Positions 1 through 35,596 are shown, counted from the first letter of the stretch. The stretch: 35,596 nt of DNA from an uncultured Candidatus Saccharibacteria bacterium (GCA_964455475.1 CAYVWL010000003.1:1-35596); one strand, 5' to 3'. Translations and numbers: made by a program. The notes: generated by a model from the letters alone, not told the origin.

Positions 1-43
1 AATACAGAATACTCAAGGTCTTGCGCTTGGGTCCCTTACCCAA
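1..43 (-). CDS. possible 5' end of a CDS running off the left edge (MGKGPKRKTLSILY...)
   Basis: Minus strand: SD AAGGAGG (rc of 49-55), then 5 nt, then TTG (43-41). The frame stays open to the edge, but only 14 codons are visible. Confidence 0.2.
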   Translation of the reverse strand, partial: MGKGPKRKTLSILY

Positions 44-46
44 GCT

Positions 47-70
47 CACCTCCTTAGAAAAGGCGGAGAA
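47..70 (-). repeat. repeat family A, partial inverted copy (TTCTCCGCCTTTTCTAAGGAGGTG)
   Basis: 23/24 identical to 3823-3846 when read on the opposite strand. Confidence 0.8.
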
Positions 71-93
71 AGCGGAGTGACGAAACGAGAGTT

Positions 94-148
94 CCCTTTC
101 CCCGCCTTGGTTAAGGCGGGGTGGACATTCTGATGGACGGGGCGGTTG
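94..148 (-). repeat. repeat family B copy 1: CAACCGCCCCGTCCATCAGAATGTCCAC plus hairpin CCCCGCC-N8-GGCGGGG
   Basis: 55/55 identical to the reverse complement of 35542-35596 (aligned by hand). Confidence 0.95.
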
Positions 149-239
149 CGTCTATTTTGACAGGGGAGGAGAAATCCCCTTATTCTTAGGCCTATTTTGG
201 CCTATCAAAAAAGAAAATGATAAAAAGTGCTAAAAGCAC

Positions 240-267
240 TTGACTTTAAAACTGGGTATGCTATACT
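240..267 (+). promoter_or_regulatory. sigma70-type promoter TTGACT-16-TATACT with TGc extended -10
   Basis: Hexamers read directly. It points into the region antisense to the 358-579 ORF. Confidence 0.45.
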
Positions 268-292
268 GTACAAATCACGGAGAGGTAAATCT

Positions 293-361
293 GTGATGAG
301 GGAGCTCCCATACAATATGATAGTGTCGGCTGTTTGGTCAGTGTCTCGTGTTAGACTCTAG
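293..361 (+). CDS. small ORF, 22 aa (MMRELPYNMIVSAVWSVSRVRL)
   Basis: GGAGAGG lies 7 nt upstream of GTG293/ATG296. Its stop codon overlaps the stop of the convergent ORF 358-579. Confidence 0.25.
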   Translation: MMRELPYNMIVSAVWSVSRVRL

Positions 362-579
362 GCTAACGGTAGCCAGAGATCTAGTTCGGTCAGGTCGGTC
401 ATGTCCTCATCATACCAGGTGAAGGACACACCAGTTCCAGGTGAATATGGAATAATGGTTCTCGTTGTTCTTTCTGCCATTGTCTGGTTTTCAGGGAATG
501 GTCCCTGAAGAGGGTCGGATGTCATCAGATGTCCGGCCCTTTCTATTTGTCCAAATTTTGTGATTGACTTTCGATACAA
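358..579 (-). CDS. hypothetical small protein (73 aa from TTG579, or 55 aa from ATG525)
   Basis: ORF track. ATG525 is preceded by AGAAAGGGCC, the same 10-mer found upstream of the 6854 gene. No recognisable family. Confidence 0.35.
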   Translation of the reverse strand: MYRKSITKFGQIERAGHLMTSDPLQGPFPENQTMAERTTRTIIPYSPGTGVSFTWYDEDMTDLTELDLWLPLA

Positions 580-642
580 TAAGGTGTATGATATGAGCAG
601 ATGTTTTTTCGGGGTGTAATAGTCCCTAACCGTGGAGGATAT

Positions 643-723
643 ATGGGTGGTTTGTTTGCCGTCGTCTGGGTGCTAGTCGTTCTTCTTGTACTAAGGAGGT
701 ACGAAATATGCTTACGTCCATAA
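643..723 (+). CDS. 26-aa hydrophobic peptide MGGLFAVVWVLVVLLVLRRYEICLRP
   Basis: Hand-translated, below the ORF-track cutoff. GGAGGA lies 3-4 nt upstream of ATG. It overlaps the next gene start by 16 nt. Confidence 0.35.
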   Translation: MGGLFAVVWVLVVLLVLRRYEICLRP

Positions 724-983
724 GTGAGCAGAGTGGTGCTCTGCTGGTCTTCGTTCTGTTTCTCGCCGCATACGTTCTGGTGCGATACCTGGCGAACAGA
801 AAGCCGGCCAGCGGTTGCTCACAGTGCGGAGGCCGTGTCAGGCGGGTTCCGACGGTCACACACAGTGTGAATTCGCCGAAAGGTGTTGAGCTCAACTACG
901 GTGACTACCAGCTTGTGTGCGACAGGTGTGGTGTCGTGGGGGGCAAGGGCTCACGACTTGAGAACGGTATTCAGATCAAATGA
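708..983 (+). CDS. small membrane-anchored zinc-ribbon protein (91 aa)
   Basis: AAGGAGG lies 8 nt upstream of ATG. One TM segment (ALLVFVLFLAAYVLV) is followed by CSQCG...CDRCG. A terminator follows. Confidence 0.65.
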   Translation: MLTSISEQSGALLVFVLFLAAYVLVRYLANRKPASGCSQCGGRVRRVPTVTHSVNSPKGVELNYGDYQLVCDRCGVVGGKGSRLENGIQIK

Positions 984-986
984 TAT

Positions 987-1038
987 GCCTGTTGTGGAAA
1001 GGGAAGAAAAACCTGGACCACCACAGGCTTTTCTTCTG
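987..1038 (+). terminator. rho-independent terminator
   Basis: Stem GCCTGTTGTGG / CCACCACAGGC (10 of 11 bp) followed by TTTTCTTCTG. Confidence 0.6.
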
Positions 1039-1139
1039 CCCGCATTTGCCTTTTTTGATATAAAGAGTATGATAATTTGGTAGTAACCCCTAGCAACAAA
1101 TGCCAGGGTATTTGTCGGCAAATACCTTATCCACCAAAT

Positions 1140-1187
1140 CTCCTCCTTTTCTAAGGAGGAGTACCGAGTCTGCGAGGGGAGGTGGTG
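1140..1187 (+). repeat. repeat family A copy 1 (48 nt, CTCCTCC-TTTTCTAA-GGAGGAG hairpin plus GAGGGGAGGTGGTG)
   Basis: 47/48 identical to 3825-3872. It ends 22 nt before the uvrA ATG. Confidence 0.95.
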
Positions 1188-1209
1188 TGAGCAAGGGAAA
1201 TTTAGATAT

Positions 1210-3872: not shown

Positions 3873-3913
3873 AAAAATATAAAACTAGAACCCGCCCTTT
3901 CTTAAGGGGCGGG
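3873..3913 (-). terminator. terminator for the minus-strand small-peptide operon
   Basis: Hairpin CCCGCCC-N9-GGGCGGG (3891-3913), followed on the minus strand by a T-rich run (rc of 3873-3884). Confidence 0.6.
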
Positions 3914-3921
3914 GGATGTCA

Positions 3922-4050
3922 TCAGCTGAAGAATCTGAGCGCAAGGAACACCAGCGAGATTACGATTACCGCAATCAGTGCGCCGATGCACACCATGAAG
4001 ATTCGATATGCAGAGTGTACCAGCGGGGATGGCTTCCTACGAGTTGTCAT
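3922..4050 (-). CDS. 42-aa single-TM peptide MTTRRKPSPLVHSAYRIFMVCIGALIAVIVISLVFLALRFFS
   Basis: Hand-translated. GGGAGG lies 5 nt upstream of ATG. Basic N-terminus followed by a hydrophobic helix. Confidence 0.55.
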   Translation of the reverse strand: MTTRRKPSPLVHSAYRIFMVCIGALIAVIVISLVFLALRFFS

Positions 4051-4064
4051 GTCTACCTCCCTGA

Positions 4065-4175
4065 CTAATTGTTGTAAAGCCACAAAGCATAACCGAGATA
4101 TGCAACAACGACCAGAATGAAGGCAAACAGGCCAGCTATTCTGGCATTGTTTCCCATCCTGTGTATTCTGGCCAT
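4065..4175 (-). CDS. 36-aa single-TM peptide MARIHRMGNNARIAGLFAFILVVVAYLGYALWLYNN
   Basis: Hand-translated. GAAGGAG lies 5 nt upstream of ATG. The stop is 14 nt before the next peptide gene. Confidence 0.55.
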   Translation of the reverse strand: MARIHRMGNNARIAGLFAFILVVVAYLGYALWLYNN

Positions 4176-4196
4176 CAAAGCTCCTTCAAAGTCCAG

Positions 4197-4249
4197 TTGA
4201 CGTAATGAGCACCTTATATTATGATAGCAAAATAATCATGAAAAGTCAA
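4197..4249. promoter_or_regulatory. face-to-face overlapping promoters: plus strand TTGACG-17-TATGAT (uvrC); minus strand TTGACT-17-TATCAT (peptide operon)
   Basis: Plus strand: -35 at 4197-4202 and -10 at 4220-4225. Minus strand: -35 is rc of 4244-4249 and -10 is rc of 4221-4226. The two -10 boxes share one palindromic TATGATA. Confidence 0.55.
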
Positions 4250-5589: not shown

Positions 5590-5605
5590 TGTTATACTGT
5601 AGCGT

Positions 5606-6571
5606 ATGGCAAAGAAAAAAGTCGGCGTTTTACGTGGTGGGCCGAGCAGTGAATATGAGGTGTCATTGAAAACTGGTAAATCCGTGATGGACAGTTTGGC
5701 TGACCGCTATGAAGTACTGGATATTTTTATTGATAAGGATGGTGTGTGGCATTATCAGGGTGTGGTCACCAAGCCGGAAAAAATATTTAAAAAAGTGGAC
5801 GTGATTTTCAACGCCCTGCATGGCGCCTATGGTGAGGATGGCACGGTACAAAAATTGTTGGACTACTTTAATATTCCTTATACTGGCTCTACGGCCCTGT
5901 CCTCGGCCGTGGGTATGAATAAAGTCTTGTCCAAGAAGGTTTATTCTAACTATAAATTAAAAACCCCACTTCACACCCTCGTCTCTAAAAAAGAGGATTT
6001 AAAAAAGGCGGTGACTGCAATCTTCAAATCCTTCCCAATGCCCGTGGTGGTGAAGCCGGTTTCTGGTGGTTCGTCCGTGGGTACCTCAATTGCTAAAACA
6101 CTGGTGGATCTAGAGCGGGCGGTTGAGGATGCTTTGAAATATTCTGATCAGGCTTTGATTGAAGAATTTATTGCTGGCAAGGAAGCTACCTGTGGCGTGG
6201 TGGACAAGTTTCGTAATGAGGAAATTTATTCATTATTGCCAGTAGAGATCAGGAAACCAGTTGAATCCGCTTTTTTTGATTATCAGGCCAAGTATGGCGG
6301 AAAGTCCGAGGAAATTTGCCCAGGTAATTTTACGGCTGAAGAAAAAAAAGTAATTCAGGCCATGGCTCGTGAGGCGCACAAGGCACTTGGTCTACGTCAT
6401 TATTCCCGTTCGGATTTTATTATTCACCCACGCCGAGGTATCTATATTTTAGAAACAAATACTTTGCCCGGTCTCACCAGTGAGTCCCTTCTTCCAAAGT
6501 CCCTAAAAGCCATCGGCTGTTCCTTGCCAGATTTTCTGGATCATCTTATTAAATTGGCTCTAGAAAAATAA
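5606..6571 (+). CDS. ddl: D-alanine--D-alanine ligase
   Basis: 321 aa with ATP-grasp motifs (VVKPVSGGSSVG, NTLPGLT). TGtTATACT lies 7 nt upstream of ATG. Confidence 0.93.
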   Translation: MAKKKVGVLRGGPSSEYEVSLKTGKSVMDSLADRYEVLDIFIDKDGVWHYQGVVTKPEKIFKKVDVIFNALHGAYGEDGTVQKLLDYFNIPYTGSTALSSAVGMNKVLSKKVYSNYKLKTPLHTLVSKKEDLKKAVTAIFKSFPMPVVVKPVSGGSSVGTSIAKTLVDLERAVEDALKYSDQALIEEFIAGKEATCGVVDKFRNEEIYSLLPVEIRKPVESAFFDYQAKYGGKSEEICPGNFTAEEKKVIQAMAREAHKALGLRHYSRSDFIIHPRRGIYILETNTLPGLTSESLLPKSLKAIGCSLPDFLDHLIKLALEK

Positions 6572-6586
6572 TTATGTAAAGAAACA

Positions 6587-6611
6587 CCCACCAGACAAGG
6601 TGCCCGGTGGG
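6587..6611 (-). terminator. possible terminator hairpin for the 69-aa gene
   Basis: CCCACC-N13-GGTGGG, followed on the minus strand by TGTTTCTTT. The stem is weak. Confidence 0.35.
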
Positions 6612-6644
6612 CTCTCTTGTGCGGTGGGTGGTGATTTCGCTGTT

Positions 6645-6854
6645 TCAGATATCAACTGTGAGGCCACGACGCTGGGCCTCCTCCTTAACCATATCCTTGA
6701 GTCTCGGCATGAGTTCTTCCACCGTCGCACCTTCGGCGTTGACTCTGAACACTTCCTCCTCACCTCGCATGAGATGATACTGAGTATCACCAAAGACGAC
6801 ATGTGGCGAGGTCAGCGTTCCCCTGAATGTTGAGATTATTATGCTCGCTTTCAT
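6645..6854 (-). CDS. hypothetical 69-aa protein in a GC-richer islet
   Basis: ORF track. It has its own consensus promoter. No family recognised; only a vague resemblance to small antitoxin-like alpha/beta proteins. Confidence 0.55.
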   Translation of the reverse strand: MKASIIISTFRGTLTSPHVVFGDTQYHLMRGEEEVFRVNAEGATVEELMPRLKDMVKEEAQRRGLTVDI

Positions 6855-6893
6855 TTGGCCCTTTCTGTCGGTGTGCCATTCTCTCTATTCTAG

Positions 6894-6922
6894 AGTATAG
6901 CAAATATCATAATATTTGTCAA
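6894..6922 (-). promoter_or_regulatory. consensus promoter TTGACA-17-TATACT
   Basis: The rc of 6917-6922 is TTGACA and the rc of 6894-6899 is TATACT. Spacer is 17 nt, with TGc before the -10 box. Confidence 0.7.
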
Positions 6923-7047: not shown

Positions 7048-7548
7048 TTAAGGATGACTACTAAGTCTTAAACGATAAGCCCAAGAATGGATATCATGCC
7101 AATCAATAAAAACACGATAAACAAGGAAACTAACCCCGAATATAAGACAAGCGTATAGAATAATTAGTATGATAGAAACAACATACCTTTTAGTACCTGT
7201 TTTTTTTGATGTGTAATTTTTTAAAATAAGATATAGACCTCCGACAAATATAATCACACTAAAAATGACTAATTGCCAAAACAAAAAAATATAAACCGGT
7301 TTCAATACGGTAGTCTCTGTGTATGATGAAAAAGTATACCCTTTTGATTCGCATGTACTACCATCACTATGATATGCCCAACCTGGTGCAAGTTCATAAT
7401 TATCTCCATCTTCTGCCCACCAGTGATTGCCGCACATTTTTAAATCATTATTCATCACAAGAGTTGGTCCCGTCATTGCATAAACAGATGATGCAGAAAA
7501 TAAAATTATTGCTACAATAAGTATAAGAAATATCTTTATAAATTTCAT
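7048..7548 (-). CDS. hypothetical membrane protein (signal peptide, Cys-containing ectodomain, 2-3 TM segments)
   Basis: 166 aa. N-terminal MKFIKIFLILIVAIILFSASSVYA. Hydrophobic C-terminal half. Confidence 0.6.
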   Translation of the reverse strand: MKFIKIFLILIVAIILFSASSVYAMTGPTLVMNNDLKMCGNHWWAEDGDNYELAPGWAYHSDGSTCESKGYTFSSYTETTVLKPVYIFLFWQLVIFSVIIFVGGLYLILKNYTSKKTGTKRYVVSIILIILYACLIFGVSFLVYRVFIDWHDIHSWAYRLRLSSHP

Positions 7549-7633
7549 TTCAATACATTATATCATAACTAAAAGTTCTGACCACCACAAATGATGCCAG
7601 AATAAATGTTGCTAAATATAGATCTAAACGTAG

Positions 7634-7927: not shown

Positions 7928-7956
7928 TTGACTATACTTTCGCATACTAATATAAT
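7928..7956 (+). promoter_or_regulatory. consensus promoter TTGACT-17-TATAAT, 6 nt before ATG (leaderless mRNA)
   Basis: Read directly from the sequence. Confidence 0.7.
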
Positions 7957-7962
7957 CCCTTA

Positions 7963-8709
7963 ATGACTGACCTAGAAATCATAATTTTAGCTGCGGGGAA
8001 GGGGACGAGGATGAATAGTGACAGCCCAAAGGCCTTGATAGAAATCAAAGGTAAACCAATGATTTCTTATCTGTTATCTACTGTGGAGCAGATTGAAAAA
8101 AGGCCGATAATCGTCCTGGGTCATAAAGCCGAGGAAGTTAAATCTAAAATTGGACACGGTTATCACTTTGCCCTGCAGGAAAAGCAATTAGGCACCGGAC
8201 ACGCTGTCTATCAGGCTATATCCAGCATTTCACCCCAGGCAAAATCCGTCATCGTCTTATTTAGTGATCAGCCTTTGGTGAAGAAGGAAACTATTTTGCG
8301 TCTGTATGAGTCGCATATCAGGCAGAATAAATCACCCCTAACCTTGGGCACGGTGCTGGTGGATGATTTCTCTGATTGGAGAACGTCATTATATGACTTT
8401 GGTCGGATAGTGAGATGCCCGGAAAATAAAATTATAAAGATTGTGGAGAAAAAGGATGCCACAGAAGCGGAAAGAAATATCAAGGAGCTAAACCCTTCCT
8501 ATTATTGTTTTGACCGAGTCTGGCTAGCAGAAAATATTTCTAAGATTAAAAATGCTAATGCGCAAGGTGAATATTATCTCACAGACCTGGTTGGTCTCGC
8601 CAAAAGCCAGGGGTATGAGCTAAACTCTATCAACATTCCGCCCGAACAAGCCCTGGGCGTGAATAATCTGGAGCAGTTAAACTTTATTACCAAGTTTATC
8701 GGCAGGTAG
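7963..8709 (+). CDS. sugar-1-phosphate nucleotidyltransferase, GlmU N-terminal-domain-like (no acetyltransferase domain)
   Basis: LAAGKGTRM and QEKQLGTGHAV motifs. 248 aa. Confidence 0.8.
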   Translation: MTDLEIIILAAGKGTRMNSDSPKALIEIKGKPMISYLLSTVEQIEKRPIIVLGHKAEEVKSKIGHGYHFALQEKQLGTGHAVYQAISSISPQAKSVIVLFSDQPLVKKETILRLYESHIRQNKSPLTLGTVLVDDFSDWRTSLYDFGRIVRCPENKIIKIVEKKDATEAERNIKELNPSYYCFDRVWLAENISKIKNANAQGEYYLTDLVGLAKSQGYELNSINIPPEQALGVNNLEQLNFITKFIGR

Positions 8710-10190: not shown

Positions 10191-10232
10191 TGTTTTATTG
10201 TGTTAGCATCAATCTTGCTATATAATTCTCTT

Positions 10233-11834
10233 ATGAATAAGAAAAAAATAATTATCGCTGTCGTTATTGTGATAGTAGCAGTCGTTATCGGTTTTGTAAT
10301 AAATATTATACAGAAACCTATCATTCCAGTGGTTAGCATACCAGATGATAATATCGCCTCAACCACAGTTCATGTCTCTGCTGTAAAATGGATAGCTCCA
10401 GAAAAGGTGAAAAATTTGGATGTATTTAAGACCGGTACTAACAAGGAGGTAGCAACATTTTATAAGGTTGGTACTTTTATTGACGGTGTTTATAAAGACG
10501 GAAGTGTTCTTGTTGCCACAGTCGTGCCCGATGGGCCTGGTAGAGATAGTATTTATTATTTTACGGCTTCAGACGGAAACATCTTTCTTATAGAAAATAG
10601 TTCCGACAAGTTATATGACGGAGATTTCCTTGATCAAAATAAATTTTCTCTAGATAGCACCACTGTTTTATCTGACCTGATTTTTCCTGAGAAGTTATAT
10701 TTCAATAAAAGCAGTTTTACTTTAAGCGGAAATAATTTAGCCGAACCATTTTTTAATCAGGTATATTCTCCTGCTGACCTGAAACTCATATTCTCCGATT
10801 CTAGTCTTGGTAATGTATATACTGATACCCAGGGCGAGCAGACCATTAAATACGCTATGAAGAAAAACGGCTACTACTTAATTGCCCCTGACGGCACCTT
10901 ACGCACTTATTCTCTTGATATGAATTTTTATAATACCAAACTCAAAATACCTCAGGTTATATGGAGTGACGGTACAACCAATAGTGCTGAATACGTTAGT
11001 ACTGACATTGGTGGGTGTGGGTCCAGAAATTATGCGTCAGTTACCTACGATCTATCACTAAGTGATTTAGAGGTGATAGGTAAAACAGCAAAGGGTGATG
11101 ATATTTTTGGACTAAAGGATCAAAATAGTTTGATTTTGAAAGATGTGTATGACAAGGATTATTATACCTTCAATACACCAAAAATTCCTTACGAAGAGTT
11201 TATTCAATCAAGACCAATTTTCTTTTGGTTTGATTCAATGGGGCGTTTGATTAAATTCAAGAAGGCTGAGTATATTCCGCCAGTAGAATGTGGCAAGCCG
11301 GTGATTTATCTTTATCCAGAGGAGAAAATAAAAGTATCAGTTAAAATTGAACCCAAAGGCGGATTTACTTTTACTGAACCAGATTATGGTACCGGTTGGA
11401 ATGTGTTTGCTAATCCTGACGGTAAATTAATTGATCTAAATAGTGGTATTACATATCCTTACTTATTCTGGGAGGGTAGAGGTGGTATTTATACTACGCC
11501 AGAGAGAGGATTTATTGTTGCAAGTTCGGAAATTCATAGTTTCCTAATTGAAAAATTAAGCAAGCTCGGGCTTAATGAGAAGGAACAGGCGGATTTTATC
11601 GAATTTTGGGAACCACGCATGATTGGAGCGCCATATTTCTTTGTTACATTTATGGGTAATAGAGTAATGGATGAAATTGCTCCACTGACAATTACACCGG
11701 AACCAGATACCGTTATTAGAATCCTTATGGATTATACACCGCTACAAAAACCAATATCCGTGCAGGGTTACGAGATAAGGACACCGGAGAGAAAAGGCTT
11801 TACAGTGGTGGAGTGGGGTGGAGTTTTGAGATAG
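10233..11834 (+). CDS. hypothetical membrane-anchored extracytoplasmic protein
   Basis: ATG10233 lies 6 nt after TGcTATATAAT. The ORF-track start at 10200 is a GTG upstream of that promoter. One N-terminal TM segment. Confidence 0.65.
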   Translation: MNKKKIIIAVVIVIVAVVIGFVINIIQKPIIPVVSIPDDNIASTTVHVSAVKWIAPEKVKNLDVFKTGTNKEVATFYKVGTFIDGVYKDGSVLVATVVPDGPGRDSIYYFTASDGNIFLIENSSDKLYDGDFLDQNKFSLDSTTVLSDLIFPEKLYFNKSSFTLSGNNLAEPFFNQVYSPADLKLIFSDSSLGNVYTDTQGEQTIKYAMKKNGYYLIAPDGTLRTYSLDMNFYNTKLKIPQVIWSDGTTNSAEYVSTDIGGCGSRNYASVTYDLSLSDLEVIGKTAKGDDIFGLKDQNSLILKDVYDKDYYTFNTPKIPYEEFIQSRPIFFWFDSMGRLIKFKKAEYIPPVECGKPVIYLYPEEKIKVSVKIEPKGGFTFTEPDYGTGWNVFANPDGKLIDLNSGITYPYLFWEGRGGIYTTPERGFIVASSEIHSFLIEKLSKLGLNEKEQADFIEFWEPRMIGAPYFFVTFMGNRVMDEIAPLTITPEPDTVIRILMDYTPLQKPISVQGYEIRTPERKGFTVVEWGGVLR

Positions 11835-22114: not shown

Positions 22115-22137
22115 CTTCATGTTATAATGTGAGCACG

Positions 22138-23860: not shown

Positions 23861-23889
23861 CGGTGGATAAACTCCTATCATTTTTTAGT

Positions 23890-24951: not shown

Positions 24952-25041
24952 CTAGCACAGTCGGCCCCACAGGGCTCCCTTTGCATAGACACTTCTCCAC
25001 TTTGGCGCCACAAACTTCTTGCGTCGCTTCTTCATGGACAT
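24952..25041 (-). CDS. 29-aa highly basic peptide MSMKKRRKKFVAPKWRSVYAKGALWGRLC
   Basis: Hand-translated. AAGGAGGG lies 7 nt upstream of ATG. Confidence 0.4.
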   Translation of the reverse strand: MSMKKRRKKFVAPKWRSVYAKGALWGRLC

Positions 25042-25138
25042 ATGTTGTCCCTCCTTTTCTACTATTCATTATACTCCTTTCATTTTGTTTGTCAAGTCTA
25101 TTAAATATGTCAAAAAAACCTTAATATATGGAGACAAA

Positions 25139-27103: not shown

Positions 27104-27154
27104 AACCCCGCACTGGTGGTTGTGTCTATTATTAATATATAATATAATATCTCC

Positions 27155-28300
27155 ATGTCGTTCTTTTCTTTTTCAAAAAAGAATAAAGAAAGTTATTCTC
27201 TTGTGTTTAATATTGGCAGTGGCAGTGTGTCCGGTGGCATTGTAAAATTTACGGAAAAAGAGGGCGTGGATATGGTGCATTATGCCAAGGAATTGATTCC
27301 CTTTCAGACGGAAATTTCCGTCCCAAAACATTTAGAGCTGATGAAGGCATCACTCGCCACCCTAGCAGACAAAATCCGCGCGGAAGGGCTGGTAAAAATA
27401 GATGCTAAAAAGGGTAGTAGTATTGTCATAGACCGAGTTTTTTACCTTTTTTCCTCCCCTTGGAGTGTCTCGCAAACGAGGACAATCAGGGTCAAGGAAA
27501 CCAAACCTTTTAAAGTGACGGAAGGTTATTTGAGTAAATTAATTAATGAACAAGAAAAACAATTTCAAACTGATGTCTCCCAGACCGGAAAAATTATTGA
27601 GAAAAAAATAGTCCAGATAAAAATAAATGGTTATGTTATCAATGATATTCATAATCGTACCACCAAAGAGCTTCAAGCCTCGGTCTTCTTTACTGTTGTC
27701 CCTGATGATATTTTAAGGACCGTGGAGGAAGCGGTGTCAAAGACTTTTCATATTAAAAATGTTTGGTGTCACTCCTTTTCTTTGGCCGCCTTTTCCCTTA
27801 TCAGAGATATGTTTCCCCAAAAGGAGGATTTTATACATCTAGATGTCAGTGAGGAAATGACCGATATTTCTATTGTGAAGGATAATGTGATGACCAGTGG
27901 CGCATCAATTCCTTTAGGGCGGAATGATTTTATGCGGGAATTAGCAACAGTGCTAAAAGTCTCCCCAGAAATTGCTGACTCTATGCTAAAGATGCATGCT
28001 CAAAAAAATAACAATGAATTGGCTACCCTAAATCAGTCCGTCAGCTTAGATACCGCTGCCAGAAATTGGCTAACCAAAATATTTGAAGTCTTGGACAGTT
28101 TGAAGGAAAAAATATATGTTCCGGAGTCTATCTTTCTTATTGCCGGCAGTGATTTAATTCCTTTTTTAAAGGAGAAGCTGGAAAAGCATGACTTTAAAGT
28201 AATTTTAGTGGATAATAGAAAGATCAAATCAAAAATTGTTGTAGATGATATAATATTTAGGTTGGAATTAATGTTTTTGGATAATCTTTACAAAATATAA
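27155..28300 (+). CDS. divergent FtsA/PilM-like actin-fold protein
   Basis: FNIGSGSVSGG and HLDVSEEMTDISIV...IPLGRNDF resemble the FtsA/PilM phosphate motifs. ATG lies 6 nt after TATAAT. Confidence 0.4.
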   Translation: MSFFSFSKKNKESYSLVFNIGSGSVSGGIVKFTEKEGVDMVHYAKELIPFQTEISVPKHLELMKASLATLADKIRAEGLVKIDAKKGSSIVIDRVFYLFSSPWSVSQTRTIRVKETKPFKVTEGYLSKLINEQEKQFQTDVSQTGKIIEKKIVQIKINGYVINDIHNRTTKELQASVFFTVVPDDILRTVEEAVSKTFHIKNVWCHSFSLAAFSLIRDMFPQKEDFIHLDVSEEMTDISIVKDNVMTSGASIPLGRNDFMRELATVLKVSPEIADSMLKMHAQKNNNELATLNQSVSLDTAARNWLTKIFEVLDSLKEKIYVPESIFLIAGSDLIPFLKEKLEKHDFKVILVDNRKIKSKIVVDDIIFRLELMFLDNLYKI

Positions 28301-29742: not shown

Positions 29743-29961
29743 ATGGCCAATAATAAAAATAAACAAGTAAAAGACGGGGTAGTGACCGAAGCTTTTCCCA
29801 ATACACTTTTCAAAGTGAAGACAGTGGGGGAGGAAGCCGAGGTTCTCTGCTTTCTTTCTGGTAAAATGCGTTTGCACCGAATTCGGGTGCTGATCGGAGA
29901 TAAAGTTTCATATGAGGTTGATGAATATGGTGGTAAAGGTAAAATTATAAAAAGGTCATAA
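29743..29961 (+). CDS. infA: translation initiation factor IF-1
   Basis: 72 aa with an S1-like fold sequence ([17 protein letters not shown]). Confidence 0.93.
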
Positions 29962-30011
29962 TTAACCCGCCAAAATTTTTATTAGAAAAATATAGGAGGG
30001 TAAATAATATC

Positions 30012-30128
30012 ATGAAAGTAAAAGCTTCCGTAAAAAAGATCTGTCCCAAGTGTATGATTGTCCGTCGCAAGAGCCGAGTGATGGTGGTTTGCACGGCCAA
30101 TGCCCGCCACAAACAGAGGCAAGGCTAA
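30012..30128 (+). CDS. rpmJ: 50S ribosomal protein L36
   Basis: Hand-translated [38 protein letters not shown]. Confidence 0.93.
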
Positions 30129-30181
30129 ACCCTTGCTTTATAAAGCGCTTTATGCTATTCTGCCGTAGTTAATTTTATTTT

Positions 30182-30562
30182 ATGCGTATTTCAGGAATCA
30201 CCATCCCCGACAACAAAAGATTAAAGGTTGGCCTAACCGTTCTATATGGTATAGGTCTTTCTTTGTCTAAAAGTATTTTGGCCGAGGCCAAAGTCAGTGG
30301 TGATAAGAAACCAACAGAAATATCTCCTGAGCAGGAAAATACTATTCGTAAAATCATTGAATCTAAAAAAATTGAAGGTGATTTAAAGCGTGAAGTCTCT
30401 GGAAACATTAAAAGATTAAAAGATATCAAAACCTACCGCGGTACCCGTCATGCTAAAAAGCTTCCATCCCGCGGTCAGCGCACCAAAACCAATTCCCGTA
30501 CTCTGCGTGGCAACACCAGAAAGACCATGGGTACTGGTAGAAAGGCGGCTGAGAAGAAATAA
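30182..30562 (+). CDS. rpsM: 30S ribosomal protein S13
   Basis: MRISGITIPDNKRLKVGLTVLYGIG. Confidence 0.95.
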   Translation: MRISGITIPDNKRLKVGLTVLYGIGLSLSKSILAEAKVSGDKKPTEISPEQENTIRKIIESKKIEGDLKREVSGNIKRLKDIKTYRGTRHAKKLPSRGQRTKTNSRTLRGNTRKTMGTGRKAAEKK

Positions 30563-30569
30563 AATTTAA

Positions 30570-31004
30570 ATGGCAAAAGATAAAATTGTAAAAAAAGAAG
30601 AAGGTAAGGCTGGAGCTCCAGAGGTAAAAGTGGAAGCCAAAGCCTCTGTCAAAAAGAGAGTGAGCTCCGGCGTGCTTTATGTGGAATCTACTTTCAATAA
30701 CACCAAAGTTTCTTTGACGGATGATAACGGTAATATTTTGATGTGGTCATCCAGCGGTTCTCTGGGCTTTAAAGGCGCAAAAAAGGGTACGCCATTTGCC
30801 GCCGCTAAAATCGGTGAGACTTTGGGTCAAAAAGCTTTTGATTTAGGCCTCAAGGAGATAAATGTCGTGGTCAAGGGTGTGGGTTCTGGCCGAGAGTCAG
30901 CTATTCGTGGTTTTATTACCAAAGGCTTTACTATCAATTCCATCAAGGATGTCACACCGGTTCCACACAATGGTCCTAAACCGAAAAAACCAAGACGTGT
31001 ATAA
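30570..31004 (+). CDS. rpsK: 30S ribosomal protein S11
   Basis: FNNT...GTPFAA...GSGRESAIRG. Confidence 0.95.
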   Translation: MAKDKIVKKEEGKAGAPEVKVEAKASVKKRVSSGVLYVESTFNNTKVSLTDDNGNILMWSSSGSLGFKGAKKGTPFAAAKIGETLGQKAFDLGLKEINVVVKGVGSGRESAIRGFITKGFTINSIKDVTPVPHNGPKPKKPRRV

Positions 31005-31083
31005 AAAATTAAACTTGTCCCGTTTAAAAATCAGCGGAGACAAATTAAAGATAAATTATTAAAAATTAAATTTTTAAACCGGG

Positions 31084-31689
31084 ATGATAAACAGACCAAA
31101 ATACAAGACCGCGCGTAGACTAGGAGCCAATATTTTTGATAAAACTCAAACCCAAAAGTTTGCTAATAAAGAGGCAAATAAAAAAGTTGAAAAGCGCGCT
31201 CGCCCTAAGAGTGATTACGGCTTGCAAATGCTAGAAAAGCAAAGAGCCAAAGTGACTTATGGTGTAAACGAGCGGATGTTTGCCAAATATGTCAAAAGTA
31301 TTTTGGAAAAGGCCGGTGCCAACTCTCCAGAAAAACTTATTTCTATTTTGGAATCCCGTTTAGACAATGTGATCTACCGCCTAGGCCTAGCACCCACTAG
31401 ACAAGCCTCAAGACAAATGGTGTCCCACGGCCATATTTTGGTAAATGGTTTGAAAATTACTATTCCATCTTTTGCCGTCTCTCTGGGAGATAAAATTACC
31501 ATTCGCGAGAGCAGCGCCAAGAAGGGTATTTTTGCTAATATTGATGAAAAAATAAAGGATCGCAATTATCCATCATGGCTAGCCTTTGATATTACTAAGA
31601 AAGAGTGTAAAGTCCAGGGAGCACCTAAACTTTCCGCCCTGGAAACCATTTTTGACCCCGCCGCCGTGTTAAACTTCTACAGCCGATAA
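31084..31689 (+). CDS. rpsD: 30S ribosomal protein S4
   Basis: Contains an S4 RNA-binding domain (LDNVIYRLGLAPTRQASRQMVSHGHILVNG). Confidence 0.95.
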   Translation: MINRPKYKTARRLGANIFDKTQTQKFANKEANKKVEKRARPKSDYGLQMLEKQRAKVTYGVNERMFAKYVKSILEKAGANSPEKLISILESRLDNVIYRLGLAPTRQASRQMVSHGHILVNGLKITIPSFAVSLGDKITIRESSAKKGIFANIDEKIKDRNYPSWLAFDITKKECKVQGAPKLSALETIFDPAAVLNFYSR

Positions 31690-31759
31690 AAGACTTGCAT
31701 ATTTTTTAAAAATAGTTTATAATATTTATTCGTTTTTATAATTTAATTAATAAAAGTCT

Positions 31760-32713
31760 ATGTCAGAAAATAAACAAGTATTGCTACCTTCCAAGCCACG
31801 TATTGTCTCGGAAGAGGGTTTTTCGGGGACATATGAAATTGACGGCCTATATCCAGGTTATGGACACACCTTGGGTAACTCCTTGCGCCGAATTATCCTT
31901 TCCTCTCTGCCTGGCGTAGCTATCACCTCTATTAAAATTTCTGGCGTTGACCACGAATTTTCCTCTGTAGCCGGAGTAAAAGAAGATGTGATTTCTCTGA
32001 TTTTGAATTTGAAGAAAGTCCGTATTAAAATGTTGACCGATGAGCCTCAAACCATTGAGCTCAAGGTTAAAGGTGTAAAGGAAGTGACCGCTGGTGATAT
32101 CGAGGTCCCCGGCCAAGTGGAAGTTTTGAATCCGGATCTATATATCGCAAGCCTGGGTAGCAAGTCGGCCGAGCTTTCCATTGAAATGAGAATTGAGAAG
32201 GGCCTAGGTTATGTACCAAAAGAAATTTTACAAAAAGACCGCACAGAAATCGGTCATATTGCCTTGGATGCTATTTTCAGCCCGATCCGTCGAGTAAACT
32301 ATGAAGTGGAAAATATGCGCGTGGGTGACCGAACTGATTTTAACAAACTGAAACTCTTTATTGAGACTGATGGTACTATCACCCCAAATCAGGCCCTGGA
32401 GGAATCTATCTTGATTATGATTGGTCAGTTGAAAGCCATTGTTGGTTTCAAGGAGCCAGAGGTGGAGGTAAAAGAGGCCAAGGAGGAAGTGGAGGATTCC
32501 AAGGAAAGTGATGCTGAATTCCTTAAAACCAGAATTGAGACCCTGGATCTTTCAGCTAGAACTATCAATGCCTTGTCCAACGGCAATATTCGCACGGTGG
32601 GTGGCCTGGCCCGAAAGAAAGAAGCAGATTTGGATGATATTGAGGGTCTGGGTGCCAAGGGTATTCAGGAAATCAAGAAAGTTTTGTCAAATTACGGTAT
32701 AACTTTGAAATAA
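31760..32713 (+). CDS. rpoA: DNA-directed RNA polymerase subunit alpha
   Basis: GNSLRRIILSSLPG plus a C-terminal domain (LDLSARTINAL). Confidence 0.95.
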   Translation: MSENKQVLLPSKPRIVSEEGFSGTYEIDGLYPGYGHTLGNSLRRIILSSLPGVAITSIKISGVDHEFSSVAGVKEDVISLILNLKKVRIKMLTDEPQTIELKVKGVKEVTAGDIEVPGQVEVLNPDLYIASLGSKSAELSIEMRIEKGLGYVPKEILQKDRTEIGHIALDAIFSPIRRVNYEVENMRVGDRTDFNKLKLFIETDGTITPNQALEESILIMIGQLKAIVGFKEPEVEVKEAKEEVEDSKESDAEFLKTRIETLDLSARTINALSNGNIRTVGGLARKKEADLDDIEGLGAKGIQEIKKVLSNYGITLK

Positions 32714-32717
32714 AACA

Positions 32718-33065
32718 ATGATTCACGGACAGAAAACAAAACAATTGGGACGAGAGAGAAATGGCCGAAATGCACTGCTCAAATCTTTGAGTGTGTCTTT
32801 GATTCGCGATGGTAAAATTCAGACTACAGAGACCAAGGCTAAAGTCTTAAAGCCAATCGTTGAGAAATTAATTACCAAGGCCAAGGTGGGGGATATGAGC
32901 GCCAGGAGATTTATTGATTCCAAAGTTGGCCCAGTAACTGGTAAGAAACTGGTAGAAGTAATTGCCCCAAAATTCAAAGATAGGAATGGCGGATATTTGC
33001 GTATTACCAAATTAAATGATAGAAAGAATGACGGCGCCAAGGTGGCCCAGATAGAGTTTGTCTAA
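32718..33065 (+). CDS. rplQ: 50S ribosomal protein L17
   Basis: KLGRERNGRNALLKSL...TTETKAK. Confidence 0.93.
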   Translation: MIHGQKTKQLGRERNGRNALLKSLSVSLIRDGKIQTTETKAKVLKPIVEKLITKAKVGDMSARRFIDSKVGPVTGKKLVEVIAPKFKDRNGGYLRITKLNDRKNDGAKVAQIEFV

Positions 33066-33076
33066 ATTTAAACCAA

Positions 33077-33427
33077 ATGACCAAGAATTATAACATTGAT
33101 GCCAGTGGAAAAAAGTTGGGCCGTCTCGCAAGCGAGATTGCGGCAATTTTGATTGGTAAGCAGAGTGCAGATTTTCAGAAGAATGAGATTGCCGATGTAA
33201 AGGTGGAGGTGATGAATGCTTCTAAAATGGATATTGCGGAGAAGAAGGCGCGCACCACTATTTATACCAATTATTCTGGTTTTCCGGGTGGTTTAAAGAC
33301 CAGGACACTGGAGGAGGTAGCCGTGAAAAATGGCTATGCGGAAGTTTTGCGCATTGCTGTGGCCGGTATGATTCATAAGAATAAATTGAAGGATAAGATT
33401 TTGAAAAATTTAACCATAAAAGACTAA
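33077..33427 (+). CDS. rplM: 50S ribosomal protein L13 (short)
   Basis: [22 protein letters not shown]...YSGFPGGLK. Confidence 0.9.
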
Positions 33428-33428
33428 A

Positions 33429-33839
33429 ATGACCGAAACACATAAAGAACATAAATATATTGAGACCGTGGGCCGAAGAAAGACCTCTATTGCCCGCGCC
33501 CGCCTGACCCCAAGTGCCAAGGCCTCTATTACGGTCAATGAAAAGTCTGTCGATGATTATTTTAAGGTAGCGGAATATAAAGCGATCGTCCTATCAGCTA
33601 TTGATGAGTTGAAATTAGAGCAGAAATTTGCCGTCACCGTGATGGTCAAGGGTGGAGGAGTAAACTCCCAAGCCGAGGCTATCCGCCACGCTATCGCTCG
33701 CGCTTTGATTGTTCATGATATTTCCTTGAGAAAAGATTTGAAAAAAGCTGGTTACCTAAAAAGAGATCCTCGAGCTAAGGAACGCCGAAAGTTCGGCCTC
33801 AAAAAAGCCCGCAAGGCTCCTCAGTGGTCCAAACGTTAA
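33429..33839 (+). CDS. rpsI: 30S ribosomal protein S9
   Basis: [12 protein letters not shown]...[25 protein letters not shown]. Confidence 0.95.
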
Positions 33840-33856
33840 TATTATACTGATTCAGA

Positions 33857-33903
33857 CAACCGCCTCGTCATCAGAATGACACTCCTCCTCAACTGAGGTG
33901 GAG
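33857..33903 (+). repeat. repeat family B, diverged copy (CAACCGCCTCGTCATCAGAATGACAC plus hairpin CTCCTCCTC-N5-GAGGTGGAG)
   Basis: Shares its order and most bases with 35542-35590. It sits directly after the rpsI stop. Confidence 0.6.
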
Positions 33904-33970
33904 ATTGTTCGAGCCTACGGCACTTTATTCGCTTTTTTGATTATTTTGCATTTTTTGCTATAATAGGCCG

Positions 33971-34570
33971 ATGACAAATGATAATGATGAGGTAAAAAAG
34001 GATGATTCAGTGACCACAGAGGATACTTCGGAGGTGGTTTATGATGCCGATATTGATAGCGACAATATGAGTGATCCGAAGGAAAAGATTGCCAAACTGA
34101 AAGAAAAGCTAAAGAAACTCCAGGCGGAAAAAGACGAATACATGAACGGCTGGCAGAGAGAGCGAGCGGATTTTGTAAACTTTAAAAAACGCGCCGAGGA
34201 AGAGAAAAAGGAATATATAAAATTTGCTAATGAAAATCTGTTGGAGGAGATGCTCACCGTGCTCGAAAGTTTTGATATGGCTTTTATGAATAAAGAGCAG
34301 TGGAATTCTGTACCACAAAATTGGCGGGTGGGGGTGGAATACATTCATTCACAGCTGGTTAAAATTTTGGATGATAATGGGCTAAAAGAATTTGTACCAA
34401 AAATCGGTGAAAAATTTGATGTAAAACTGCATGTGGCGGAGGAGATGAAGCTGGTCACAGATGAGGCACAGGATAATTCCATTATAGAAATAAAAAAGAA
34501 GGGGTATATCATGAATGGTAAAATCATCATTGCGCCAAAAGTGGTGGTAGGGGAGTTTAAGAAAGTATAA
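33971..34570 (+). CDS. grpE: nucleotide exchange factor GrpE
   Basis: WQRERADFVNFKKR...LESFD motifs. TGcTATAAT lies 6 nt upstream of ATG. Confidence 0.92.
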   Translation: MTNDNDEVKKDDSVTTEDTSEVVYDADIDSDNMSDPKEKIAKLKEKLKKLQAEKDEYMNGWQRERADFVNFKKRAEEEKKEYIKFANENLLEEMLTVLESFDMAFMNKEQWNSVPQNWRVGVEYIHSQLVKILDDNGLKEFVPKIGEKFDVKLHVAEEMKLVTDEAQDNSIIEIKKKGYIMNGKIIIAPKVVVGEFKKV

Positions 34571-34604
34571 GTATAGGTATTTGGTATGGGTATTGCATAT
34601 TTTT

Positions 34605-34645
34605 GATGAAATAAACGATACGCGGTCGCGTGTCAGTTATTTCAT
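34605..34645 (+). repeat. repeat family C copy 1 (41-nt palindrome GATGAAATAA...ACGCGGTCGCGT...TTATTTCAT)
   Basis: 38/41 identical to 35115-35155, in direct orientation. Confidence 0.9.
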
Positions 34646-34685
34646 GACCACGAGACTGTGAATTTGATAATGCGTATATATGTTG

Positions 34686-34712
34686 ATGCGCCGAGGGGTT
34701 TCCTCGGCGCAT
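34686..34712 (-). terminator. 11-bp perfect GC hairpin downstream of the minus-strand 91-aa gene
   Basis: ATGCGCCGAGG-GGTTT-CCTCGGCGCAT. No U-tract. Confidence 0.45.
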
Positions 34713-34741
34713 GCCAGACAGTGTCTGGATTTCACTCGTGC

Positions 34742-35017
34742 TCAGGTGGCTGTGGTCTCGGAGATGAAGACGCGCTTCAGATGACTGAGAATTGCGTCAG
34801 CCGTGTGATCGGCATTATCCAAACGTGCAGTTCCGTCACTGCCTGACTCCAACAGCAATTTCTCGAGTGCCTCTGGCATTGCTGCTAGGATCATATCCTT
34901 CATGACGTCAGGCGTCTCACGTAGAAGTAGAAGTAGGTCCTCCCGGCCACCACCCTCTGCCTTTTTGAGATCAGACTCAAAATAGCGACACAACCATGCT
35001 TGGGTATTTTCCATCAC
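34742..35017 (-). CDS. hypothetical acidic helical protein (about 90 aa)
   Basis: AAGGAGG lies 7 nt upstream of ATG35014 (GTG35017 is the alternative start). Candidate upstream promoter TTGATT-16-TAATAT. Confidence 0.6.
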   Translation of the reverse strand: MMENTQAWLCRYFESDLKKAEGGGREDLLLLLRETPDVMKDMILAAMPEALEKLLLESGSDGTARLDNADHTADAILSHLKRVFISETTAT

Positions 35018-35114
35018 ATCACCTCCTTACAAGTCGCCTTACTGGGGCGAGTACTGTTCCAGCATAAATATTACACTTATTTTGTATTAAATCAATGTAA
35101 TATGAATATTTCCC

Positions 35115-35155
35115 GATGAAATAAATGGTACGCGGTCGCGTGTAAGTTATTTCAT
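35115..35155 (+). repeat. repeat family C copy 2
   Basis: See 34605-34645. Confidence 0.9.
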
Positions 35156-35174
35156 TATTGATACCTGAATATTT

Positions 35175-35201
35175 TTGACATTTTCAAAAATATGCTATAA
35201 T
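35175..35201 (+). promoter_or_regulatory. promoter TTGACA-15-TGcTATAAT, 6 nt before ATG
   Basis: Read directly. The ORF-track TTG start coincides with the -35 box. Confidence 0.55.
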
Positions 35202-35207
35202 AGACCT

Positions 35208-35540
35208 ATGTTAGCTATCCAGAACTGGCCCTCCGTCGCTCAGAAGCTATGGACGGGCAAGCAAAAATTCATACAGAAGGCGGTGCAGTTGCCAAATGGC
35301 ACCTGGGCCTTGGTGGTATTTGAACTTGTACAGGTAAATGGCCGGCTGATTGCTCGCGCCGTGTCCGGTAAAATACTTGAGGAGGTACAGGCGGAGAAAG
35401 CAGAGGTTTTGTGCCTACCTTGCATCAAAAGCCCGGCAGAGTTTGTCCCAGTCAAATCCATATTTTCAAATCTTGTTTCCAACCTTTCCAAGGATTTAAG
35501 TTTTGTTATGAGCCAACCTACTCGGGCTCCTAGCTTCTAA
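35208..35540 (+). CDS. hypothetical 110-aa protein
   Basis: ATG35208 is leaderless. The gene ends 1 nt before repeat B copy 2. No family recognised. Confidence 0.55.
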   Translation: MLAIQNWPSVAQKLWTGKQKFIQKAVQLPNGTWALVVFELVQVNGRLIARAVSGKILEEVQAEKAEVLCLPCIKSPAEFVPVKSIFSNLVSNLSKDLSFVMSQPTRAPSF

Positions 35541-35541
35541 C

Positions 35542-35596
35542 CAACCGCCCCGTCCATCAGAATGTCCACCCCGCCTTAACCAAGGCGGGGAAAGGG
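35542..35596 (+). repeat. repeat family B copy 2 (truncated by the window edge)
   Basis: Perfect reverse complement of 94-148. Confidence 0.95.

Follow-up and report, generated by a model that had tools for sequence, protein, structure and literature searches.

The window considered here is a DNA stretch of 35,596 nucleotides (nt; CAYVWL010000003.1) from an uncultured bacterium, and constitutes one complete contig. Its genes display two different sets of expression signals, which are split between conserved genes on one side and small variable cassettes, lying in islets at the junctions of these genes, on the other. The long open reading frames (ORFs) of the window are of the housekeeping type and comprise uvrA, uvrC, ddl, genes for a nucleotidyltransferase, a Memo-like protein and an Lnb_N-domain protein, ychF, leuS, a sigma-like gene, mltG (YceG family), mnmA, genes for an ATP-cone/Mrr protein and a Cas4-like PD-(D/E)XK nuclease, alaS and grpE. 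To these are added the ribosomal cluster infA-rpmJ-rpsM-rpsK-rpsD-rpoA-rplQ-rplM-rpsI and three tRNA genes.

The closest UvrA loci, with 83-93% amino-acid identity, were found in metagenome-assembled genomes of the Paceibacterota (Parcubacteria), a division of the Candidate Phyla Radiation (CPR) or Patescibacteria (loci L004-L008), and a UvrA scan of species-representative genomes recovered matches from Patescibacteria only. Judging from these similarities, the window belongs to a Parcubacteria/Paceibacterota genome. The CPR/Patescibacteria account for a large share of bacterial diversity, and their gene expression has hardly been studied by experiment. The pattern described below makes it testable whether, and for which genes, the ribosomes of Parcubacteria use Shine-Dalgarno (SD) pairing. 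For comparison we used 80 related genome loci and an independent set of 58 metagenome loci fetched via a repeat element of the window, making a total of 138.

Conserved genes start without Shine-Dalgarno sites

A strict -10 box was defined as a hexamer with at least five of six matches to TATAAT, with A2 and T6 required, whose end lies 5-9 nt before an ATG. Such boxes precede 9 of the 29 core starts, as against 45 of the 1095 other ATGs of the window (4.1%; binomial p=1.6e-6), and their distances peak at 6 nt. Altogether, a -10 box whose end stands 6-12 nt from the ATG was recognized for about 12 of roughly 32 conserved genes (Table 1), and it is solely from this distance that we infer leaderless transcription starts. 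When the same 29 starts were paired with a canonical 16S tail, none reached a free energy (dG) stronger than -6.4 kcal/mol, and the ribosomal-protein genes ranged from -0.4 to -2.7 kcal/mol. Those core starts that do not have the leaderless signature are preceded by sequence with 77% A+U, and their mean fold energy is -1.6 kcal/mol (-20 to +20). The sole core gene with a strong SD-like motif is rpmJ, encoding bL36 of 38 amino acids (aa) in the gap between infA and rpsM (30012-30128), where GGAGGG stands 11 nt upstream, a long spacing; the same motif recurs in the related contig L001.

An earlier note on this DNA had listed promoter and SD strings, every one of which was found where it had been placed; mnmA and the minus-strand 7548 gene are further cases of a nearby -10 box that it had not named. 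Its claims that core -10 boxes stand at a short set distance from the ATG and that the ribosomal-protein genes are devoid of SD sites withstood these counts, although rpmJ had been overlooked. Two gene assignments had to be revised. The start of uvrC is not at 4205 but is the ATG at 4238 (MKSQDLKKY), as placed by homology with L005. The gene starting at 35208, which the note had counted among the islet genes, is conserved in relatives and predicted to be leaderless, and belongs to the core class; its homologues in L136 and L141 have the same promoter, TTGAC(t/a)-17-TGcTATAAT-6-ATG.

These properties extend well beyond the window. Across the 80 genome loci, a -10 box lies 5-9 nt before the first ATG in 24-30% of the long ORFs; the 6-nt spacing stands out sharply, with 99 cases as against about 10-20 at neighbouring distances. 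SD-like pairing is seen in 0-6% in the proximal window versus 2-4% in a distal control. The 58 metagenome loci gave much the same figures, the leaderless signature being found on 29% of long ORFs and SD-like pairing in 3.6% versus 3.1% for the control. The data thus support the initiation of conserved genes without SD pairing throughout the lineage. Neither SD sites nor an excess of G+C mark the small genes conserved between loci (rpsT, csp-like, RRM-like, glutaredoxin-like and others), and small size alone is therefore not the cause of the signals found in the islets.

Islets carry a second set of expression signals

Five islets of 0.3-1.3 kb stand apart from this background in composition, their G+C fraction (GC) being 0.465-0.521, as against a core-gene mean of 0.406 (standard deviation 0.033, maximum 0.462). 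The G+C fraction at third codon positions (GC3) of their ORFs is 0.46-0.69, with only the 26-aa ORF at 643 falling below 0.50, whereas core genes average 0.41 and do not exceed 0.49. In the islet ORFs the first-position G+C (GC1) exceeds that of the second position (GC2), AAG and GAG are favored over AAA and GAA, and arginine is used in place of the lysine of core genes. Pairing energies of the SD sites are -12.1 to -13.4 kcal/mol for the starts at 708, 4050, 25041 and 35014, and about -8 kcal/mol for those at 4175 and 24557. The cassette SD is AAGGAGG, frequently extended to GGAGGTGA(T), at 5-10 nt from the start codon, and agrees with the canonical 16S tail. Sequences upstream of islet starts have 54% A+U and a fold energy of -4.6 kcal/mol.

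Islet units have near-consensus -35/-10 promoters, leaders of about 20-45 nt and hairpin terminators. The cassette ORFs are 26-107 aa in length and orphan or nearly so, several of them specify single-pass membrane peptides, and many cassettes are opposed in direction to the flanking core genes. Taken together, these features support the recognition of the islets as a distinct accessory class, equipped with promoters, leaders, SD sites and terminators of its own.

The association of SD sites with small ORFs was then quantified in gaps, meaning stretches not covered by long ORFs; such gap-restricted analyses replaced a census of all ORFs and all starts, which was diluted by spurious ORFs. Strong SD sites before small gap ORFs were counted in proximal and distal positions, giving 11 versus 6 in the window, 10 versus 2 in close relatives, 53 versus 24 in the other genome loci and 28 versus 10 in the metagenome loci. 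In a second test, in which ORFs were not chosen by their SD, we asked how often GGAGG in gaps is followed 4-10 nt on by an ATG or GTG with at least 25 open codons behind it. This was so for 9 of 35 instances in the window and for 9 of 26 among the five closest relatives (26-35%), although rplM, whose 116 aa fall below the long-ORF cut-off so that it was counted as gap, contains three of the nine window cases. The control pentamers CCTCC, GGTGG, GGAAG and GAGGG gave 0-9% in the same test. As in the window, the SD-led gap ORFs of relatives are G+C-richer than their host contig.

The GC values that the earlier note had counted by hand on sample lines were reproduced (0.56, 0.32 and 0.43), and its contention that the islets combine strong SD sites with a higher G+C content is borne out by the figures above. 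It had further remarked that nearly all minus-strand coding lies in the islets, from which the gene at 7048-7548 has to be excepted; this gene is AT-rich, appears to be leaderless and is no islet gene.

Islet content differs at the same junctions in relatives

The interval from grpE to the 35208 gene spans about 70 nt in L136 and L141 and about 600 nt in the window, the extra DNA being the minus-strand cassette of the 35014 ORF. The 41-nt palindromic repeats that bound this cassette are 93% identical to each other, fold with z=-3.3, and were found at no other place when the window and 83 loci were compared. Only a loosely similar sequence is present at the empty site of L136. The arrangement suggests either a terminator hairpin that was duplicated during insertion or a hairpin-ended non-autonomous element. 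From rpsI to grpE the roles are reversed, L136 having an islet of about 780 nt, whose two SD-led ORFs run antisense to the neighbouring genes, and the window having only a 55-nt repeat element. Upstream of uvrA the junction measures 71 nt in L004 and 28 nt in L007, and is occupied by islets of 531 nt in L006 and 432 nt in L008, the former comprising a promoter, TAGGAGGTGA, a 73-aa ORF and a terminator. The distance from ddl to tRNA-Ala is 20 nt in L007 versus 1234 nt in the window.

The slot between uvrA and uvrC contains a different minus-strand SD-led small ORF in each of the window, L005, L007 and L008, and a G+C-richer gap of 750 nt, with no SD-led ORF called, in L006. In the window, the divergent small-ORF unit shares a bidirectional promoter with uvrC: the -10 hexamers overlap, the plus-strand one occupying 4220-4225 and the minus-strand one 4221-4226, so that transcription of the two would be expected to begin about 18 bp apart. 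L005 (around 4460-4530) has this overlapping layout too, with an unrelated small ORF. More generally, islet content is non-homologous between genomes.

Atypical composition might also result from assembly chimeras or from contaminant DNA joined to a CPR contig, and it is true that contigs tend to break at repeats here, the window ending in a 55-nt repeat and the contig L002 at both repeats. An independent Logan contig (L003), however, covers islet 4 and both flanking core genes with 99.9% identity, which argues that this islet is not an assembly artefact. Analogous islets at the same junctions in relatives from other studies, and the interlocking of core promoters with islets, as at uvrC, speak against this explanation as well, and we consider it extremely improbable. 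The four base differences between L003 and the window all lie in alaS, and hence they provide no signal of selection for the islets.

Cassette proteins and searches for a donor

Searches against Pfam, PHROG, NCBIfam and PADLOC recovered no significant family for any islet ORF, and no phage protein family was obtained for any of them in the PHROGs. The same four collections yielded no integrase, transposase or other mobility gene in the window or its cassettes. The proteins starting at 24557, 35014 and 708 had no homologue among 5.8 billion proteins, the matches being to themselves only, and no hit was obtained when every islet peptide was compared by tblastn with the 80 related loci. Phage records contained no match to islet 4, and plasmid records none to islet 1.

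The exception to this orphan status is the 69-aa protein of islet 3 (6645-6854), which has two small relatives with 53% and 48% identity. These too are encoded in G+C-richer patches of A+T-rich contigs and are preceded by purine-rich leaders. An AlphaFold model built from the three-sequence alignment predicts a beta-beta-beta-alpha arrangement with a mean predicted local distance difference test score (pLDDT) of 90.6, and on the strength of the small family and this model we take the ORF to be a real protein. Against the PDB, a sequence search gave nothing and Foldseek with the model gave no match at E<=0.001, the best being E=1.5. The single-sequence model of the 24557 protein (pLDDT 43) is uninformative. 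A membrane-type hydrophobic segment is present in 32% of SD-led gap ORFs across the clade versus 15% of other gap ORFs (p=0.009); in the window it is found in the SD-led ORFs starting at 643, 708, 4050 and 4175.

With most ORFs lacking homologues, one could hold that the islets are mainly non-coding, being made up of structured RNAs, terminators and repeats akin to repetitive extragenic palindromes, and that their SD and ORF pairs are incidental to CCUCC/GGAGG hairpin arms. Conserved hairpins with CCTCC/GGAGG arms do lie in and beside islets, and the segment 272-550, an RNA candidate of about 270 nt with only a 21-codon ORF inside, folds with z=-5.0 relative to shuffled sequences. The poor model of the 24557 protein accords with this proposal, as does the arginine-rich ORF at 23937, which is non-genic in look and may be non-coding. 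Such incidental pairing nevertheless sits poorly with a coupling of GGAGG to start and frame that is 3-5 times that of the control pentamers, with the coding-like excess of GC1 over GC2 and high GC3, with the enrichment of hydrophobic membrane segments, and with a family that is conserved at the protein level and has a confident predicted fold. Moreover, Rfam searches returned just the three tRNAs, both at gathering thresholds and at E<=5, and no RNA family in any islet. We hence judge a mainly non-coding nature of the islets to be improbable.

Origin of the cassettes

We are fairly confident that the cassettes are variable accessory DNA of atypical character, probably acquired, and in need of their SD sites. 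In the mechanism that we propose, the first gene of a core unit would have its (often extended) -10 box 6-9 nt before the ATG and give rise to a leaderless or near-leaderless mRNA, and operon-internal or short-leader core genes would start from A/U-rich, weakly folded spacers without an SD. The cassettes would be acquired accessory DNA with a fast turnover at core-gene junctions, as the presence and absence of islets at the same junctions would fit, and they would keep their SD sites because their G+C-richer and more folded leaders could not use the SD-independent route of the host. The scheme would require that the host 16S rRNA still has a usable anti-SD. A foreign origin is what we infer from composition together with the pattern of insertion and deletion. 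In favor of acquisition speak the GC3 values above those of the core genes, the clean empty sites of relatives, the cassette bounded by repeats and the missing homologues. The earlier note had proposed that the islets are either foreign or a separately regulated class. The SD-free core, the distinct accessory class and the presence/absence pattern stand on its side, and the donor that the first option calls for was not found in the searches made.

Several observations weigh against acquisition, or against dependence on SD sites. Besides the missing donors and mobility genes, the compositional shift is toward G+C, the opposite of what is usual for mobile DNA: acquired or mobile DNA is as a rule A+T-richer than its host, not G+C-richer. 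The family of the 6645-6854 protein has stayed G+C-rich in all three A+T-rich genomes despite a divergence of about 50%, which argues against a simple recent import followed by drift to the composition of the host. Every one of the five close relatives extending to uvrC has extra DNA in the slot between uvrA and uvrC, and the window and L005 share the overlapping divergent -10 layout, which looks like maintained native architecture. In rpmJ, a core gene too has a strong SD-like motif. Finally, Tsurumaki et al. (2022, RNA 28:1041, PMC9297842) detected the anti-SD motif in no more than 48% of the 16S genes of Parcubacteria, reporting it as absent from about half, and infer that SD helices are not formed in the lineages concerned; if the present host is one of those without the motif, its ribosomes would be unable to use the SD sites.

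Some of these points could be explained if the cassettes were not foreign at all, but a native, fast-evolving class of small proteins (membrane, toxin-like or host-interaction) that are born and decay in transcribed intergenic slots, for instance on the divergent side of symmetrical -10 promoters, under separate SD control. The filled slot between uvrA and uvrC, with its overlapping divergent -10 boxes in L005 again, would then be expected, as would the retention of the coupling between SD and start in many genomes of the clade, the enrichment of membrane peptides among SD-led ORFs and the failure of the searches to find mobility genes or donors. The G+C-rich 6645-6854 family, with its purine-rich leader in three A+T-rich genomes, would also be in keeping with it. 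A native origin does not readily account for GC3 values of 0.50-0.69 that surpass those of all core genes, which are hard to reach under the organism's own mutation bias without special selection, nor for the 41-nt direct repeats and clean empty sites, which look like insertions; and the native small genes that are conserved carry core signals. We regard this native alternative as rather doubtful, though not negligible.

Acquired DNA that needs its SD sites thus remains our preferred explanation. A further proposal, which we think unlikely, is that the initiation route is itself the partition. The core would then be leaderless or SD-free and the cassettes, many of them membrane or toxin-like, would be SD-dependent and translated only when an anti-SD is available; or, with a 16S tail lacking CCUCC, the cassettes would be silent imports that preserve a record of the SD usage of their donor pool.

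Loss, masking or scant use of the anti-SD could each account for the SD-free state of the core. A 16S gene, searched for with three universal patterns, turned up in none of the 149 loci fetched. If the 16S tail of this organism ends in ...GAUCACCUCCUUA, a native reading of the cassette SD sites would be supported; if it is without CCUCC, the cassettes would be silent imports or another reader would be needed. Either outcome, if true, would be the first description of SD use limited to accessory DNA in a bacterium.

Comparison with known systems

Leaderless and SD-free initiation are each well described, and anti-SD loss has been reported for Parcubacteria. What is new is the partition, with SD sites confined to orphan, G+C-richer, variable cassettes and leadered core genes being SD-free as well. 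A literature search found no paper joining 'leaderless' and 'Parcubacteria'. The SD-free core genes of the window fit the inference drawn for Parcubacteria without the anti-SD, which concerns the same taxon; the passages of that work on which we draw analyse rRNA and ribosomal proteins, and leaderless starts and SD-bearing cassettes are not among the topics of these passages (PMC9297842).

Among the initiation types distinguished by GeneMarkS-2, group C (Actinobacteria, Deinococcus-Thermus) is the one in which roughly 25-50% of transcription units have their Pribnow box 6-8 nt ahead of the start and in which leadered and operon-internal genes use SD sites (PMC6028130). The present genomes resemble this group in the -10 box, with its 6-nt peak, on 24-41% of long ORFs. 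They differ from it in that conserved leadered and internal genes are without SD sites, which are confined to the variable cassettes. Group B, the Bacteroidetes type, is defined by a non-SD, A-rich motif (PMC6028130), and the conserved genes here are similar in that the spacers before their starts are A/U-rich, weakly structured and devoid of SD sites; the phylum is another one, however, and a large leaderless fraction exists beside the non-SD starts. Bacteroidetes retain the anti-SD in a masked form, and have rare SD sites on particular conserved genes. In contrast, the SD sites here are on orphan, G+C-richer, variable cassettes.

With horizontally acquired islets the cassettes share atypical composition and codon use, presence and absence in relatives, orphan ORFs and, in one case, flanking direct repeats. 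They depart from the usual acquired islets in their size of 0.3-1.3 kb, in the lack of mobility genes and of a donor in our searches, in being G+C-richer than the host and in having translation-initiation signals different from those of the host. Hydrophobic peptides of 26-83 aa with strong SD sites, intergenic location and sequences that are not conserved between genomes are reminiscent of type I toxin-antitoxin systems. Small hydrophobic SD-led ORFs (below about 60 aa) occupy 643-723, 3922-4050 and 4065-4175, with analogues in L005, L008, L132 and L136. Unlike in such systems, no antisense or overlapping antitoxin RNA was identified in a scan for consensus promoters only, and soluble products are encoded by other ORFs of the cassettes. 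Upstream of the 643/708 unit, and on its strand, lies the structured RNA at 272-550.

The palindromic hairpins at both ends of the 34605-35155 passenger are like those of a miniature inverted-repeat transposable element, or of a palindrome-associated transposable element of the IS200/IS605 type. The 41-nt repeat differs from both in its restriction, among the window and the 83 loci compared, to these two places, and no transposase was found in the window.

In practical terms, gene callers trained on SD sites would misplace starts in such genomes, as at uvrC, and would miss mini-ORFs or trust them too much. The cassettes are also a tangible source of candidate small membrane peptides from bacteria living attached to host cells.

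Conserved repeats and other features of the window

The features discussed above are collected in Table 1, together with the repeats of the window.

Table 1. Core gene starts, islets, cassettes and repeat elements of the window; leaderless starts are predictions from promoter spacing
Feature	Position	Strand	Details
Islet 1 (GC 0.48)	1..1209	.	composite repeat 49-148, structured RNA candidate, two-ORF unit, 57-nt repeat copy 1
Composite conserved repeat	49..148	.	49-70 part of 57-nt element (reverse complement); 94-148 55-nt element
Candidate small structured RNA	240..545	+	promoter TTGACT-16-TGcTATACT (240-267); 15-bp terminator hairpin 509-542
SD-led two-ORF unit	564..983	+	promoter 564-592
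26-aa hydrophobic ORF	643-723	+	SD GGAGG
91-aa membrane-anchored zinc-ribbon ORF	708-983	+	SD AAGGAGG, 8 nt, dG -13.3 kcal/mol; GC3 0.64
57-nt repeat copy 1, uvrA leader	1131..1187	+	
57-nt repeat copy 2, overlaps uvrA stop codon	3816..3872	+	
Islet 2 unit	3890..4249	-	promoter TTGACT-17-TATCAT (4249-4221); intrinsic terminator 3890-3915, then T run
Islet 2 42-aa membrane peptide	3922-4050	-	SD GGGAGG, dG -12.4 kcal/mol
Islet 2 36-aa membrane peptide	4065-4175	-	SD GAAGGAG
uvrC promoter and start	4197..4240	+	TTGACG-17-TATGAT, ATG 4238 12 nt after -10 box
ddl, predicted leaderless start	5590..5608	+	TGtTATACT-7-ATG
Islet 3 unit	6586..6922	-	promoter TTGACA-17-TGnTATACT (6922-6894), leader about 33 nt, terminator 6586-6612
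Islet 3 69-aa ORF	6645-6854	-	weak SD AAAGGG
166-aa AT-rich gene (7048-7548), predicted leaderless start	7548..7565	-	TGaTATAAT-8-ATG
Nucleotidyltransferase gene (7963), predicted leaderless start	7928..7965	+	TTGACT-17-TATAAT-6-ATG
10233 gene, predicted leaderless start	10221..10235	+	TATAAT-6-ATG
ychF, predicted leaderless start	12795..12812	+	TGcTAGGAT-6-ATG; weaker case
18680 gene, predicted leaderless start	18664..18682	+	TGaTAAAAT-7-ATG
mnmA, predicted leaderless start	20927..20941	+	TAAAAT-6-ATG
ATP-cone/Mrr gene (22138), predicted leaderless start	22120..22140	+	TGtTATAAT-9-ATG
Islet 4a (GC 0.52)	23861..24330	+	SD-like GAAGGGAGGG, GTG 23937, 105-codon Arg-rich ORF, strong terminator 24300-24327
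Islet 4b	24481..24880	+	hairpin 24493-24516, SD AAAGGAG, 107-aa ORF 24557-24880
29-aa basic ORF 24952-25041, divergent from alaS	24952..25095	-	perfect consensus promoter TTGACA-16-TATAAT (25095-25068), SD AAGGAGGG
27155 gene, predicted leaderless start	27143..27157	+	TATAAT-6-ATG
infA-rpmJ-rpsM-rpsK-rpsD-rpoA-rplQ-rplM-rpsI	29743..33839	+	A/U-rich spacers without SD; exception rpmJ
55-nt element, rpsI/grpE promoter gap	33854..33908	-	
grpE, predicted leaderless start	33937..33973	+	TTGATT-16-TGcTATAAT-6-ATG
Inserted cassette	34605..35155	.	41-nt palindromic direct repeats 34605-34645 and 35115-35155; terminator near 34685-34712
Cassette 90-aa ORF	34742-35014	-	SD TAAGGAGGTGAT, dG -13.4 kcal/mol
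Conserved 110-aa gene, predicted leaderless, start 35208	35175..35540	+	TTGACA-17-TGcTATAAT-6-ATG
55-nt element at contig end	35542..35596	-	perfect inverted copy of 94-148

The hairpins of the conserved repeats have arms of the AAGGAGG or AAGGCGGGG type, which are not SD sites. The AAGGAGG strings at 49-70, 1131-1187 and 3816-3872 are such arms. One repeat, the 55-nt element (for example TTTCCCCGCCTTGGTTAAGGCGGGGTGGACATTCTGATGGACGGGGCGGTTG), has three copies in the window and others in L004 (3985-4036), L006 (2974-3034) and about 58 low-GC metagenome contigs (L088-L147). It is intergenic and found in either orientation, its core CATTCTGAT is invariant, and its 9-bp hairpin is backed by compensatory changes (CG/UA, GC/UA). 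No Rfam family and no match in viral contigs was found for it. In 14 of 59 copies the element is followed within 120 nt by an extended -10 box with an apparently leaderless ATG, and the -10 box starts within 3-15 nt in 13 of these 14.

The 3' arm of the hairpin is mirrored by the G-rich 3' segment of the element (GGGGCGG or GAGGTGG), and the two co-vary. Of the mirror columns 29/55 and 32/52 (118/144 and 121/141 in the window), one is G/G or A/A in 52 of 53 copies and the other C/C or A/T in 45 of 53. This mirror symmetry could be due to a purine-type base triple, a protein-binding repeat or subfamilies of the element. Watson-Crick pairing of the 3' segment with the 5' arm was considered as well, and rejected as it showed no covariation beyond shuffled controls.

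The 57-nt repeat flanks uvrA as a direct repeat, and also occurs at 49-70 on the minus strand, at 3065-3123 of L006 and in many of the loci L088-L146. Its 5' half and 3' end are as in the type-B form of the 55-nt element, and its middle is different; in several loci the two elements adjoin and form a composite of 100-150 nt. More hairpins of the same style, CCCCTCTCCTTGGCTAAGGAGAGGGG and CCCTCTCCTCAGTCGAGGAGAGGG, lie in the islet between uvrA and uvrC of L006 (12930-13060). Hairpins with CCUCC/GGAGG arms seem to be a general trait of the intergenic DNA of this clade.

The RNA candidate at 240-545 was found elsewhere only in the same organism (L002). Islet 4a was also considered as a large structured RNA, and this was discarded with a fold z of only -1.8, which is not significant. 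Immediately 5' of islet 4, the gene with the ATP-cone and Mrr-type nuclease domain overlaps that of the Cas4-like PD-(D/E)XK nuclease (22138-23860); the window has no CRISPR array and no other cas gene. A conserved 76-aa gene (9068-9298; MGFFKDLLLKKML...) starts 24 nt 3' of tRNA-Ala(GGC), after an A/U-rich spacer without an SD site. A longer ORF in the same place (8858-9298) overlaps this tRNA and is spurious. Homologues of the 76-aa gene are present in L006, L008, L023, L031 and L084.

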